From: a virus
Lineage: Duplodnaviria; Caudoviricetes
Length of the DNA: 64,000 nt
Virus record (IMG/VR): IMGVR_UViG_3300027874_000010
Location: 1 to 64,000 of that record
Reading direction: 5' to 3' (one strand)
Part shown: positions 42,977-51,833 of the stretch, piece by piece
How positions within the stretch are numbered: position 1 is the first letter of the stretch
Layout: each line of letters begins with the position of its first letter
Notes under the pieces: model-generated
Database searches by the model: none
What the model saw: the letters and a program-made list of their open reading frames with translations, nothing else
What the model was told of the DNA's origin: nothing
Translations under genes and position numbers: made by a program

Positions 42977-43158
42977 GCGGGATCTCCGTCCTCGAACTGG
43001 ATGCCGTGGTCGCCCGGGTACGTCTGGCGATGCTCGATCTTGGACTGCCAGATCTCGTCGGGGATGCCGTGCGTAAACGCCTCGCAGCGCATGAACGCCT
43101 TGGGTGGCGGCGCTTCGAGGTGGATGCAGTGCAGGCAGATGGCTGGTGGGAACTTCAC
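42958..43158 (-). CDS. small CxxCxH...CxAFxxGIP protein (candidate immunity)
   Basis: CLHCIH...CEAFTHGIPDEI...H...PGDHGIQFE; ATGA-coupled to giant gene. Confidence 0.75.
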   Translation of the reverse strand: MKFPPAICLHCIHLEAPPPKAFMRCEAFTHGIPDEIWQSKIEHRQTYPGDHGIQFEDGDPAWTAPS

Positions 43159-49100: not shown

Positions 49101-51833
49101 GGGGTGCGGCGTCACGCCGCCGACGCCGGTATCGAAGCTCATACCGCGATACAGGGTCATCTCGGTAATGCCTTTTGCAGCCAGGTCCGCCTGGGTGTTT
49201 TCATACATCGCCCGCGCGAAATCGCGGTACGCCTCGCCCCTGATGGCGTACTCCTGGCGCATCTCCTCCTTCAGGCTGGCCGCGCTCGTTCCACTCGATT
49301 CCCAGGACTGGCCGCTGAGCAGATGGTCAGTCGTCGCGTCTTTCAGCCCGAACTCGTCCTTGACAGCCTGCTGCAGCGCCGCCGGAATCACGTGGTTGTC
49401 GCCTGATGAGCCGGCCCAACTCTGGATCAGGTTGGACGCAGCCCAGGCACGCTCGGCAGCGACACTCCTGGCAGGCGCTTCCATCGGCTCGCTGCCCGAC
49501 CAGTTCTGGTACGGGTGCTCGCGGAACGCCTCGGCCTGAGAGTGCGCGTAGTCGTTGAAGGCGGCACTGCCCTCCAGTCGATCCCCGATCTCCTGGGAGA
49601 TGCGCGCCTTGTACTCCTGCTTGGAGGCGCTCATGTCGTTGATCGCCTCGTCCACTTGGTTGTGCGCCGTCTCCGCTGCCGCCGTGCCCGCCGCCGGACT
49701 GCCCGGGAAGTACGAGCCTTCTTCGGGGTTCGGCAGGCTCGGCGTGCCGGTCGCCGCCCACCGTCCGCGCTCGTCACGCGGCTGGCTCGGGTCGTAGTCC
49801 TTGCGCTCCAGGGGGAGCCATACTGTCTTGACGCTCAACAGCGGCCCGGTGCTCTTGGGTGGACCGGCACCACCCGCGTCCCACGCCTGGGCAGTCACTT
49901 CATCTTTGCCGCCGAGCAACACCACCTCGCGCTCGGGCTTGCAACCAAAGCCCGAGTTCATGGTTGAGAGGATGCGACTGGCGGGGACGGTCGCCGCCAT
50001 GACCGCACCCGGGTAGCTGCTGCCAGCTTCGGACGAGAACGTCGTGGCCTGGGAATAGGCGTACGCCCAGGACGAGGCCGGCTGCTGCACCACCGTGGTG
50101 CGGTGCGGCTCGCCATCCCCCTGCAGGCCGGCTGGCAACTCGGCATCGCGGGCGAAGTGCATCCCGCGATAGATGGTCATCTCCTTGATGCCCTTCGCCG
50201 CCAGGTCTGCCTGGGTGTTGTCGTACATCGCTCGCACGAACGCGCGGTAGCCATCCCCGAACGTGCCACCCGAGAGGCCGGTGGACTGGTTCGAGAAGTC
50301 ACTGGCTCGACTGAGGTCCGTCCGGCCCACGTGGTCCATCGTCGCGTCCTTCAGGCCGAACTCGTCCTTGATGGCCTGCTGCATGGCGACCGAGGCGCTG
50401 CTGGAGTCCATCGAGGTGTTGGCCCATCCCTCGATCAGTTGGCTGACCAACTTCTCCGACGCCGCCGGACCGGTCGATGCGCCCACGTAGTCGCGGAACT
50501 TGACCCACCGTGGATCTTTGTTGGCGCGGACGGCGATCTCCTTGGCGATGCGCGCCTTGTACGCCTCGCGTGTGGCACTCTGGTCGTTGAGCGCGGCCTC
50601 GGTCGCTTTGAGCATCGCCTGCCCGGAGTCCTTGCCCGTGTCAGGCGCGCGAGTCACGTCGCCCGCGCCCACCGTCCAGCGACCGGATTCGTCGCGCGGT
50701 TCGCTCTCGTCGTACGCCTTGAATTGTCCAGCGCGTTGGACAGTTTTTCTGCGCGGGTTGTACTTGGCTCCTGGGCGCGACAGCATGCCCGCGATTCGCG
50801 GACCGTCGCCTTTGCCGAAGAAGTTGCCCGCGCCCGTCCACGAGTTCACCGTGTCCTGTCCGCCGAGCACGACGATCTCGTTCTCGTCCTTGCAGCCCAT
50901 GCCGCTTTTCATCGTGCTCAGGATGCGTTCGGCCGGCACCGTCGCGGCCATGACCGTGCCCACGACGCCGCCCGAGAAGGCACGCGCCACGTCCGGGTTG
51001 TAGGACCACGACGACGCGGGCTGCTGAGTGACCGTCAGCGTCTCGGTGGCGGGCACGTCCTGATTCAGGCCGAAGCCTGCGGCGTGGGCGTCAGACGAGC
51101 GATCCCAGGACATGCCGCGATACAGCGTCATCTCCGAGATCCCCTGGGCCTTCAGTTCAGCCTGAGTGTTGTCGTACATCGCCCTGGCGAACGCGCGATA
51201 CGCCTCGCCGTTTTTGGCGTAGTCCCGCTCGGCCTGCTCCATCGTGCCTGCCAGGTCTTCGCTCAGGAAGTGCTCGGTGCTGGCGTTGGTCAGCCCGAAC
51301 TCGCGCTGCACGGCGAGTTGCATCGCCACTGCCTGGCGGTCGCCGTCACCCGAGGTGCCCGCCCACTGGTTGACGAGGATGCTGACGCCGGTCTTCAGCG
51401 GGTCGGCCTCGCGGTCCCACATCGGCTTGAGCATCGGGTTGTGACGACCCGTCGCGACCATCTCTTTGAAGGCCGCGTTGTCGCGCAGCCGCGTGGCGAT
51501 CTCGTCGGTAATGCGCGCCTTGTACTCCTCGGCCTTGGCGTTGGGATCGTTGAGCTTGGCGTCGGCCTCCGCGACACGCTCATTGACGCGCTCCTCGCTG
51601 GCGCGCTTGGGCTGCGCCGTACCACCGCCCGAGTCCGTCCAGCGCCCACCTTCGTCGCGCGGCTGAGACGGATCGAAGTCCTTCTTCACCCACACGCCGC
51701 TGCGATTTTCCAGAAAGCTAAATTTTCGGAGCTTGGTGGTCGGCCGCTGCTCCTCGGCCGCGAGGTCCGCCCAAATCTTGTCGAGGATGGCCTCGTCCTC
51801 GGGCGTGGTGTCGTACGGCGAGCCGACGCTCAC
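43155..51833 (-). CDS. 2892-aa polyprotein: 7 ADP-ribosyltransferase modules plus 2 zincin modules
   Basis: 7x MT(L/I/V)YRG...QPASSW(S/A)...ExE; HELAH and HEFGH; 9x PRDxxGRW-type headers. Confidence 0.9.
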   Translation of the reverse strand: MSVGSPYDTTPEDEAILDKIWADLAAEEQRPTTKLRKFSFLENRSGVWVKKDFDPSQPRDEGGRWTDSGGGTAQPKRASEERVNERVAEADAKLNDPNAKAEEYKARITDEIATRLRDNAAFKEMVATGRHNPMLKPMWDREADPLKTGVSILVNQWAGTSGDGDRQAVAMQLAVQREFGLTNASTEHFLSEDLAGTMEQAERDYAKNGEAYRAFARAMYDNTQAELKAQGISEMTLYRGMSWDRSSDAHAAGFGLNQDVPATETLTVTQQPASSWSYNPDVARAFSGGVVGTVMAATVPAERILSTMKSGMGCKDENEIVVLGGQDTVNSWTGAGNFFGKGDGPRIAGMLSRPGAKYNPRRKTVQRAGQFKAYDESEPRDESGRWTVGAGDVTRAPDTGKDSGQAMLKATEAALNDQSATREAYKARIAKEIAVRANKDPRWVKFRDYVGASTGPAASEKLVSQLIEGWANTSMDSSSASVAMQQAIKDEFGLKDATMDHVGRTDLSRASDFSNQSTGLSGGTFGDGYRAFVRAMYDNTQADLAAKGIKEMTIYRGMHFARDAELPAGLQGDGEPHRTTVVQQPASSWAYAYSQATTFSSEAGSSYPGAVMAATVPASRILSTMNSGFGCKPEREVVLLGGKDEVTAQAWDAGGAGPPKSTGPLLSVKTVWLPLERKDYDPSQPRDERGRWAATGTPSLPNPEEGSYFPGSPAAGTAAAETAHNQVDEAINDMSASKQEYKARISQEIGDRLEGSAAFNDYAHSQAEAFREHPYQNWSGSEPMEAPARSVAAERAWAASNLIQSWAGSSGDNHVIPAALQQAVKDEFGLKDATTDHLLSGQSWESSGTSAASLKEEMRQEYAIRGEAYRDFARAMYENTQADLAAKGITEMTLYRGMSFDTGVGGVTPHPTIPDPKTGLIFDGREHAVTTVEQPASSWSYSYHQASGFAPTESGTGAMLAATVPASRILSTMDSGWGCKDEKEVVVLGGKDEVNSWAWYANHGFPPSEPGDLVHTKTWADNGLSLDFKAYDPDQARDERGRWAATGAPTASAIEAFGKPGWSKEQIVAHARRDEADRALNDHSTSRPEEKVRIAKELSDRLEDNPAWKEYLTRAHPVPPRVVMYDVLRAHVPTQSETAASSLVQLWAQSSGDNRPQAVAMQMAIRDEFGLKDAVTDHLGIEGARPDYEANGAAYRAFARAMYDNTQADLASKGIKEMTLYRGMSFGSQTPPGLTFDGEPHATTVSQQPASSWSYDFGSATIAGVVTQAASALHGHFDSRGAMLAATVPASRILSTLNSGIGCEREHEVVVLGGNDQVAAQAWSKLSGRPLSPEGLFNVKTAWRSLETKDYDPNQARDAAGRWTAEGNAEEDALKAPAKESGSTLIGRENVADAAIDSQFDSHSASEYKERLSKDLAYRLQGNPDWEKYLADGEKRFGTSSPVDTASGLIAQWANSSGDNNVQSVIMQQAIRDEFHLNDARMDHLLSGPSWDKSAADLKFEARKEYREQGPGLRAFARAMYQNTQEELARQGISEMTLYRGLQFGPDNPPMGFEYDDKSHPATVNEQPASSWAYSFDVASGFAGGSDTHGAVIAATVPASRILSTMKTGFGCKDEKEVVVLGGKDDVAAFSWSANGNGPPSFPEDVVNTKTAVRWLELKAFDENQPRDEYGRWTTVGGNAMSAPPKEWGQAEAQSREQAAEQALNNDNLNPNYFKGDIVRNLSGRLANNPAFRKYAMSLSTALLKPGETRQHHAVNSLVAMWAGTSGDGNINAVAMQKAINEEFGLKARTEHMPMDSPNVARVYAQNGEAYRAFARAMYDNTQEELARDGIKEMTLYRGVRFRDADMVRQAGFKPDSNPHQVTVGNQPASSWAYSFRQAYKFSGGRNIPGALMAATVPASRILSTLKTGIGCKNEDEVVVLGSTDDVVAAQAWGNTPTGAPHGASEIFHTKLALQLVASLRHWFTKAYDESQPRDERGRWTHLGQAIPLSDPHALSAVMLLDKGSVHTIPSGAKAFGTPEEAERHTAAQSAAIPGISVRVVYDVPGNVQPGDKILVSEAPDINPDVIHVKGSILPPDYKPPEPEVIPRPTAFAPAKSLEDAAQFTRGLGIKYPHFEEQGDLPIANEANRQLFDITEKNPSMVMPKSVAVESMADRDTLASYNRGGDYLAVNRNGDWSNAKATAQDQANSHAWSDSDPAHVMTHELAHLQHAVHEESLGKEHDAHEPWANPAHRAAAAQVSRYAATEPAEFVAETYTGMLNGKTYSQDVMDAYHAYDGPPLPSALPSHKTWALLELKEYDPNQARDERGRWEATGAPSAPDDPLGMGRTAVNAARADEQAANKALFNPRSSRDEYKERISWELGNRLKDSAPFNEYVQRLLDEGRASRAGLPSRQMDDVDRVNQTARLVHGWAETSGDTNVRAIAMQQAIKDEFGLEDATTEHLDARVAYQGRDAQARVEQEYQQNGAAYRAFARAMYDNTQADLAAKGITEMTVYRGLNFSAGKTVAALQRETGMKFNGKPAVVQTAQQPASSWSYSFKQAANFAGEHEGAMMAAKVPASRILSTMNSGFGCKPEKEVVLLGGKDEVSAQAYSKRRGGGPPPNGAALFQTKTTWADLETKAYDPDQPRDDSGRWTSGGGGGAPKPKFAALDAPLKNPPAALGPESPYGQNDATKWSQAQIAKALKGTLPNPRARVDYDSYLKRQLVPVSQFLGKLSNQYPEVGKMLLQVGQPRTKDMKDYMRENPQAIMATSSNEFGYSAIHFGSGYQPNDPLPAEKYERDGADTGFSYPESKIPGSTAVHEFGHAVANAIQDNRDAFTEDQRMAFNSFFFLSKTLAPENVGDFSRYAQRSRDEAWAEAFSAYYLGSEHPVAKAAGDVMKKVFGKAPRASDE
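48759..48774. repeat. 16-bp palindrome copy 7
   Basis: CGATAACCCGTTATCG in an inter-module linker. Confidence 0.85.

Follow-up and report, generated by a model that had tools for sequence, protein, structure and literature searches.

A giant phage gene encoding seven predicted DraT-like R-S-ExE ADP-ribosyltransferase modules and two zincin-like modules delimited by a uniform header peptide

Organization of the giant gene

The stretch of DNA analyzed here, referred to as the window, comprises the first 64 kb (positions 1 to 64,000) of the 74.4-kb virus record IMGVR_UViG_3300027874_000010 from IMG/VR, which is estimated to be 67% complete; its G+C content is about 65% throughout. This work concerns a giant leftward gene in the window, whose single open reading frame (ORF) holds seven predicted ADP-ribosyltransferase (ART) modules and two zincin-like modules (Table 1). 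In a regular-expression scan, the header peptide [FY]-D-[PE]-x-Q-[PA]-R-D-x-x-G-R-W was found nine times in this ORF, at residues 53, 374, 680, 1031, 1351, 1661, 1968, 2298, and 2622, in all cases preceded by Lys and trailed by a Gly/Ala/Pro-rich spacer. The borders set by these headers agree to within one codon with the nine modules delimited in a preliminary description of this DNA, and the seven ExE contexts listed there (DENE, PERE, DEKE, REHE, DEKE, NEDE, and PEKE) were all recovered.

The G+C content at third codon positions (GC3) of the giant ORF is 0.86, similar to that of the adjacent genes. An identical protein is recorded from five JGI contigs and a one-residue variant from four ENA contigs, and the module-to-module nucleotide identity of 55 to 63% is too low for repeat mis-assembly. 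With its module profile also detecting 3,522 protein clusters elsewhere (see below), the giant ORF is neither a chance frame nor an assembly artifact.

Table 1. Coordinates and sequence features of the giant gene, its modules, and the adjoining ORFs
Feature	Coordinates in window	Strand	Remarks
Giant ORF, 2892 aa, GTG start	43155..51833	-	Single open frame; 52-aa leader and nine header-delimited modules
N-terminal leader, residues 1-52	51678..51833	-	Before first header
ART module 1, residues 53-373	50715..51677	-	R239, S274/S275, E317-x-E319
ART module 2, residues 374-679	49797..50714	-	R556, S587/S588, E634-x-E636
ART module 3, residues 680-1030	48744..49796	-	R896, S937/S938, E982-x-E984
ART module 4, residues 1031-1350	47784..48743	-	R1222, S1251/S1252, E1306-x-E1308
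ART module 5, residues 1351-1660	46854..47783	-	R1540, S1570/S1571, E1615-x-E1617; modeled part 46899-47666
ART module 6, residues 1661-1967	45933..46853	-	R1838, S1870/S1871, E1915-x-E1917
Zincin-like module, residues 1968-2297	44943..45932	-	HELAH at 2203, then EFVAETY
ART module 7, residues 2298-2621	43971..44942	-	R2496, S2532/S2533, E2575-x-E2577
Zincin-like module, residues 2622-2892	43158..43970	-	HEFGH at 2801, then EAWAEAF
Upstream GNAT ORF, 273 aa	51830..52651	-	Short leader, one header, GNAT acetyltransferase domain
Small ORF, 66 aa	42958..43158	-	CxxC...C pattern
Downstream ParB-like/zincin ORF	41327..42976	-	Variant header, ParB-like module, header, HExxH...EIVAEAY module

The seven ART modules align over their full length with pairwise identities of 41 to 56%, and each carries one copy of YRG, QPASSW, and ExE. 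The R, SS, and ExE residues are invariant in all seven, as are three motifs of the helical region, WA-x-[ST]-S-x-D, Q-x-A-x-x-x-E-F-x-L, and M-Y-x-N-T-Q. In the catalytic core, the modules share 60 to 77% identity along the strands. Only 19 to 37% identity, accompanied by indels, is seen in helix 3, in the loop that connects strands 1 and 2, and in the helix following SS. The loop preceding ExE (ARTT loop), known in C3-like ARTs as a substrate-recognition element, is 74% identical among the paralogs.

Fold and family of the ART and zincin-like modules

Family models gave few indications. The entire protein had no match in Pfam, and module-by-module searches returned only sub-threshold matches, among them DRAT (PF07357) for two ART modules; the DRAT match of module 5 was weak (E = 0.005 to 0.007), and so was that of module 7. 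PHROGs and NCBIfam provided no family for any module, and profiles built from 7 or 47 sequences detected no relative among the sequences of solved structures.

An AlphaFold model of module 5, computed with 47 homologs, reached a pLDDT of 92.3 and a pTM of 0.90 and comprises six helices followed by a beta core. In the numbering of the model, R151 lies in the strand 146-155 (strand 1), S181/S182 at the end of the strand 170-184 (strand 2), and E226-x-E228 at the start of the strand 228-243 (strand 5, the last long strand). As modeled, the motifs occupy the positions canonical for R-S-ExE enzymes. An unfiltered structure search, independent of Foldseek, covered 48,161 representative solved chains; its top 20 chains were all R-S-E toxin ARTs or, in the case of anthrax lethal factor, an ART-like domain, with Z scores of 4.1 to 5.9 and 96 to 175 aligned residues, most rows covering the whole model. 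These matches include CPILE-a, HopU1, a Listeria ART-ARH toxin, ART2.2, Vis, Tre1, C3stau2, C2-I, C3bot2, Certhrax, VIP2, C3larvin, SpvB, and ExoS. The match list of a poorer model of module 1 was likewise headed and dominated by ARTs, and Foldseek against the PDB returned weak but ART-enriched rows (best E about 0.03 to 0.05). Since these values are modest, the fold call rests on the uniformity of the match list, the concordant result for module 1, and the geometry of the motifs. The structural comparison of modules 5 and 1, together with a site that is intact in all seven modules, bears out the earlier description of the modules as R-S-ExE ARTs. The best structural matches, C3, VIP2, iota, C2-I, Certhrax, and HopU1, resemble the module over its whole length, including the N-terminal helices. 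They differ from it in sequence (8 to 15% identity) and in being secreted toxins of eukaryotic cells, and the C3 enzymes carry QxE and modify asparagine.

DraT is the only characterized family with a link to the modules at the sequence level. The DRAT model is matched by 20 of the 47 aligned sequences, with a best E value of 8.3e-10, across the R...S...ExE core; in these diverse homologs, R never varies, and SS and ExE hardly do. Neighbors in a language-model atlas include DRAT clusters, which we take as a lead only. PF03496 (ADPrib_exo_Tox) is matched by a single one of the 47 sequences and by no module of the window, and the window's modules do not match PF18760 (ART-PolyVal, of the H-Y-D clade), their active site being R-S-ExE instead. 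As some relatives match DRAT and the window's modules remain below its cut-off, the modules would constitute a distant sister family rather than members. We conclude, with the fold taken from predicted models, that the seven modules are R-S-ExE ARTs of an uncurated DraT-like family. DraT itself is an arginine-specific mono-ART that acts in nitrogenase regulation, in contrast to the phage effector context proposed here.

Arginine targets are probable for the seven modules because the characterized ExE enzymes DraT, cholera toxin, iota/VIP2, HopU1, and Bxa modify arginine in proteins. Against this assignment it might be argued that the modules are active ART-fold enzymes with a non-arginine substrate, serving as NADases or as modifiers of nucleic acids or small molecules. 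We consider this rather improbable, given that ExE and not QxE is invariant, that the characterized enzymes of this type act on protein arginine, and that DraT is the nearest sequence family. The idea draws on the breadth of the ART fold, which includes NADases and DNA/RNA modifiers (PMC9503650, PMC13285283), on T4 ModB, which also transfers NAD-capped RNA (PMC10468400), and on the conservation of the ARTT loop across the paralogs, which would fit a common non-protein substrate. We retain arginine-directed mono-ADP-ribosylation as the probable activity of the modules.

The two HExxH modules of the giant ORF are mutually unrelated except for the header. In both, as in a third HExxH module encoded by the next gene, E-x-[VW]-A-E-[TA]-[YF] follows 45 to 57 residues after HExxH. 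By motif, they look like zincins, as had been noted before, with HExxH and the downstream Glu as the putative third zinc ligand. The module at 44943..45932 matched Peptidase_M91 weakly (E = 0.012, below cut-off), and its atlas neighbors, again a lead only, are viral putative metallopeptidases. The last module (43158..43970) gave weak matches to ATLF (E = 0.0024) and Peptidase_Mx1, both below cut-off, and a single-sequence search with it among the sequences of solved structures detected no relative. The zincin-like modules may be effectors or processing enzymes.

Origin of the paralogs and distribution of the family

In a tree of 68 modules from the window and its relatives, six of the seven ART modules fall into one well-supported clade, in which they are interleaved with modules of the related proteins P0003, P0004, and P0005; module 1 joins them, along with P0016 and P0018, in a larger, more weakly supported clade. 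Module 3 shares 87% identity with the first module of P0005 (dN/dS 0.21) but at most 54% with its own neighbors, and module 6 pairs with the second module of P0005 at 65% identity (dN/dS 0.43). Both ratios indicate purifying selection. P0005 has the order module-3-like, module-6-like, and then a ParB-like part. P0004, the closest relative, is annotated in its source as a GNAT-superfamily protein; it has 2,585 residues and nine headers, with only two ART modules. At the P0004 locus, we observed that the next gene (L009 9193-9966) starts 4 nucleotides before the stop codon and opens with an ART module, so that the string spans coupled ORFs.

Judging from the tree and the alignments, the paralogs are old, individually conserved under purifying selection, and shuffled as header-delimited cassettes. 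Their retention as orthologs under purifying selection fits separate roles. In the same tree, the lineages of P0002, P0006, and P0009/L010 expanded their own arrays independently. The preliminary description had rightly seen the modules as diverged paralogs, but its proposal that they arose here by tandem duplication is an oversimplification, since the paralogs are older than the divergence of this phage from its relatives. Recent duplication in place is rejected on account of the low nucleotide identity among the modules together with the closer orthologs in other phages.

Searched against 1.84 billion representative proteins, a profile of the ART module detected 3,522 clusters at E<=0.001, of which 668 reached E<=1e-30, and no Pfam, PHROG, or NCBIfam model covers this family. 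Many members are proteins of 400 to 850 amino acids with an N-terminal MuF/head-morphogenesis domain and one C-terminal module, and a single copy is the rule among relatives in IMG/VR. For closer comparison, 155 relatives were examined, mostly the 150 best-scoring proteins, a ranking that favors multi-copy forms. Of these, 79 have one module, 53 two, 16 three, two four, one five, and one eleven, compared with seven in the window. The 11-module metagenomic protein (7,059 amino acids) also contains two HExxH modules, and on a 152-kb phage contig, a 5-module protein is encoded beside a 2,915-residue 6-module protein, both directly after the portal gene. The array in the window is the second-largest single-ORF array among the relatives examined. 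At the nucleotide level, a megablast search with the gene gave no hit in 50,697 phage records, and tblastn against phage records detected only the Bacillus phages SP-15 and HSE3, with identities of about 30%. When 185,579 prokaryote genomes were scanned with two narrow peptide patterns, no relative could be confirmed.

Large ART arrays are known from polyvalent proteins. Iyer, Burroughs, Anand, de Souza, and Aravind (2017; PMC5512222) reported up to 12 ARTs in one polyvalent protein of a Pseudomonas aeruginosa prophage. Proteins of this class carry many ARTs and zincins, and their delivery with the DNA and proteolytic processing were predicted (PMC5512222). The gene described here shares with them the format of a giant phage polypeptide with multiple ART copies, in which ART, zincin, GNAT, and ParB-like modules are mixed in the same or adjacent ORFs. 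In contrast, the ARTs of the polyvalent proteins belong to the H-Y-D clade (Tox-ART-HYD2, Pfam ART-PolyVal), from which PMC5512222 sets the R-S-E clade apart, and the seven of the window are R-S-ExE, DraT-like, and equipped with a large N-terminal helical subdomain. We found no mention of a uniform header in PMC5512222. Because this 12-ART protein and the 11-module and 6+5 arrays exist, the array cannot be called unique; a single ORF with seven intact ARTs is rare but not new in kind, and its earlier designation as exceptional was overstated. The polyvalent-effector theme is thus already known. What is new is the membership in an uncurated DraT-like R-S-ExE family instead of the H-Y-D clade, along with unusually clear module borders. 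The locus points to a large family (about 3,500 clusters) whose ARTs phages attach to head proteins or string together, up to 11 in one protein. To our knowledge, characterized phage ADP-ribosyltransferases are few, for example, Alt, ModA, and ModB of T4, as well as Bxa. The seven intact paralogs offer a natural panel for learning how small surface changes retarget an ART.

Conservation of the active site also bears on the idea that the array is mainly structural, that is, an internal capsid or ejection protein of repeated ART-fold units that are no longer seven enzymes. The podophage-like gene content (Gp80-type fiber, no tape measure seen) would suit such a role, and the position upstream of the fiber genes recalls the internal core proteins of T7-like phages, a comparison based on T7 gene order. 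With every catalytic residue kept in seven of seven modules, with these residues invariant or nearly so across the family, and with the orthologs under purifying selection, we regard a mainly structural role as highly improbable and treat the seven modules as enzymes.

Header peptide, virion association, and neighboring genes

The header is not confined to the giant ORF. The GNAT gene has one copy, the ParB-like gene two, and the C-terminal extension of the portal protein a further one, and two copies in variant form occur in a DUF7178 gene. In the model of module 1, the header has low confidence and is probably disordered. Among the 155 relatives, 43 carry it, always at a module start, and scanning IMG/VR with a DNA pattern brought to light at least 50 additional copies of the header that are in frame and have its full context. 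As a separate observation, the core QPRDxxGRW recurs in IMG/VR in other fixed contexts (L039-L118), such as RRARVxxQPRDxxGRW[IV]PTGA and WRHDWRSQPRDxxGRWIPGRL, which suggests a broader family of phage peptide motifs. The presence of the header is not associated with that of a zincin in the same protein (p 0.53; 38 of the 43 header-bearing relatives are without a zincin), so self-processing by zincins is not favored as the main role of the header. Header and MuF domain, in contrast, are nearly exclusive: 41 relatives have only the header, 37 only MuF, two both, and 75 neither (odds ratio 0.10, p 1.4e-4).

We propose, with a probability of roughly 0.58, that the giant gene specifies a virion-borne polyvalent effector string of seven DraT-like R-S-ExE mono-ART paralogs and two zincin-like modules, which is co-translated with the GNAT and ParB-like/zincin genes, cut at the headers, and delivered to act on distinct host targets. 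The string would be made alongside the virion genes and loaded into the capsid; cleavage would occur at the headers, directly after the preceding Lys, and the pieces would enter the host with the DNA. Each ART module would then use NAD+ to ADP-ribosylate its own host targets, most likely at arginine, with specificity presumably set by the three variable surface segments around the conserved catalytic core. Polyvalent proteins combine at least two domains of disparate activity in a single polypeptide encoded by a phage or conjugative element (PMC5512222), a description that suits the ART and zincin-like modules joined in the giant ORF. Association with the capsid is supported by the single-copy homologs, which are repeatedly fused to MuF/head-morphogenesis domains, by the 6- and 5-module arrays encoded directly after a portal gene, by the header in the portal protein of this phage, and by the near-exclusivity of header and MuF, and the giant gene lies upstream of the fiber genes on the same strand. 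As the cutting enzyme, the S78 prohead protease of the phage seems likelier than the zincins of the string itself. The probable maturation site of the capsid protein, K|A (SEQK|ALSEG), placed by the start of the Pfam capsid domain and by analogy to HK97, resembles the K|[AD][YF]D junctions at the headers. A complex prediction with the S78 protease domain (residues 1-175) and a 45-residue junction peptide gave scores of 0.69, 0.02, and 0.02, which speak neither for cleavage nor against it.

It is tempting to take this one step further and to view the header, as [FYW]-D-P-x-Q-P-R-D-x-x-G-R-W, as a portable address-and-cleavage code that replaces the MuF fusion. Any enzyme behind the header would then be packed into the capsid and freed by the prohead protease, which would allow the phage to carry at least 13 tagged modules encoded by four or five genes; the seven ARTs would be released separately, each with its own host target. 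We put this forward tentatively and consider it possible, though doubtful. The uniform headers nevertheless provide concrete candidate sites for cutting or packaging in the long-proposed processing of polyvalent proteins, and if the header were a cargo tag, it could be used to direct proteins of choice into phage capsids. Follow-up is most worthwhile for the header code and the uncurated family.

Several results weigh against the proposed effector string. The DRAT scores of the window's modules, 13.1 to 16.5 bits, fall short of the gathering cut-off of 25, the structural Z scores are below 8, and the Foldseek E value is about 0.05. The conservation of the ARTT loop across the paralogs makes seven different targets less plausible. 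No MuF domain was matched in the giant ORF, which lies about 30 kb from the head genes, and the test for exclusivity of header and MuF ignores relatedness and uses a home-made MuF profile. Finally, no specific link to the T4 enzymes Alt, ModA, and ModB, which the preliminary description had named, was found at the sequence level, where DraT is the only link: hhalign detected no similarity between T4 Alt and the family alignment. T4 Alt is nevertheless a precedent for the proposed delivery, as it resides in the head, undergoes trimming by the prohead protease, and is injected (PMC5512222, PMC9503650). The T4 enzymes are, like the modules described here, phage R-S-E ARTs, theirs reprogramming the host; they differ in being encoded by separate genes instead of a string.

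Like T4 ModA and ModB, an unpackaged string would be translated in the infected cell, where it would act or be processed as a cytoplasmic polyprotein whose modules are released by the embedded zincins. The gene order lends itself to this alternative, the giant gene being the second in a leftward operon that starts from the divergent intergenic region 52651-52894, far from the head genes, and the absence of a MuF domain from the giant ORF is in keeping with it. The same applies to the two zincin-like modules, with more next door, considering that Iyer et al. (2017; PMC5512222) propose self-processing by zincins. However, in dozens of lineages homologous modules form fusions with head proteins, the header is also found inside the portal protein, which is by definition a capsid component, most header-bearing relatives have no zincin in the same protein, and the operon runs on into the fiber genes. 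We therefore regard the unpackaged string as unlikely and favor the virion-borne one.

The overlap of the family with MuF-ART fusions brings up a further alternative, in which the modules are MuF-type antibacterial toxins for competition among lysogens or for the lysis-lysogeny decision, with cognate immunity proteins. MuF toxins as a class were described by Jamet et al. in 2017 (PMC5576092), the EFV toxin is a further MuF-ART fusion, and Alt/VIP2-MuF fusions exist (PMC9503650). Bxa, a MuF-ART fusion of a Bacteroides stercoris prophage, ADP-ribosylates arginines promiscuously and is countered by immunity proteins of the ARH type and the inhibitor type (PMC11699363). These toxins resemble the window's family in joining an R-S-E-type ART to a head-associated phage protein, and many single-copy members of the family are C-terminal MuF fusions. 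The window protein differs in that it is without MuF, contains seven ARTs instead of one, and has no recognized immunity gene. The 66-residue ORF directly after the string might be counted in favor of an immunity function, but it would be one small ORF for seven ARTs and not one for each. Neither an ADP-ribosylhydrolase nor a macro domain was found in the 74-kb record, itself estimated to be incomplete as stated above, and the scanned ORFs showed neither an integrase nor a lysogeny gene. A role as MuF-type toxins is thus very unlikely in our view, and a delivered effector string remains the preferred reading.

The neighbors of the giant gene are closely coupled to it. The stop codon of the GNAT ORF and the GTG start of the giant ORF overlap (GTGA); its header reads RDEGGRW at 52487-52507, and its Acetyltransf_1 match (E = 5.8e-05) clears the Pfam cut-off. 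GNAT and ART modules occur in one polypeptide in the relatives P0003 and P0004. On the other side, the GTG start of the 66-residue ORF overlaps the stop of the giant ORF (GTGA), and its end overlaps the start of the next gene; the Pfam scan gave no family match for this ORF, which may encode a small zinc-binding partner or an immunity-like protein. A promoter and terminator scan of 40500-53300 found nothing above chance.

The downstream ORF likely starts at ATG 42976, with GGAG upstream, and its second header reads RDESGRW at 41924-41944. The ParB-like assignment is weak (PHROG E = 0.002; no match in Pfam). In the relative P0005, one ORF holds two ART modules, followed by the ParB-like part and the C-terminal tail as in 41327..42976. 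The final approximately 23 residues of the latter (FSEHRLAQIRRFQLRVGGEDLLG; window 41327-41400) are identical at the end of P0005 (L012 461-3892), and the preceding module differs. DdrB of phage P1 combines a ParB-like domain with a C-terminal zincin and is processed and packaged into the head (PMC5512222). The downstream ORF has the same order, ParB-like module and then HExxH module, with the difference that a header separates the two.

The virion genes of this uncultured phage in the window include those for the large terminase, portal, S78 prohead protease, and HK97-type capsid protein (the latter three within 2249-13727), as well as for a fiber with an S74 chaperone domain, a Gp80-type podophage fiber, and a LamG-rich protein of 2,305 amino acids. 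The closest terminase of a cultured phage, that of Streptomyces phage mu1/6, is only 47% identical. The sole weak MuF-like match in the record is a separate ORF at 6045-6833. Pfam scans of ten further ORFs, situated in the final 10 kb of the record and at the window's right end, gave no match.

Among the leftward structural genes, the portal gene (10038-13727, minus strand) encodes a C-terminal extension of about 800 residues with a 2'-5' RNA ligase/2H-like (2H-phosphoesterase-like) domain and a zeta-toxin-like kinase, and the variant header HPRDNSGRF (10956-10976) stands directly before the kinase. The DUF7178 protein (784 amino acids; 7400-9754, minus strand) is encoded after the portal gene, opens with the header variant EWDESLHPRGEGGRF and a Gly run, contains a second, weaker variant, FNPYHDADTGRF, and ends in an HExxH (HEMGH) module. 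The N terminus of the S78 prohead protease (3760-5703, minus strand; residues 10-35), LEVKAVDPEQR..., resembles the combined junction and header LExKAYDPxQxR; this likeness may be a coincidence or may reflect a shared recognition element. A gene for an ATP-dependent DNA ligase (21261-22133, plus strand) lies in a rightward block between two leftward structural blocks.

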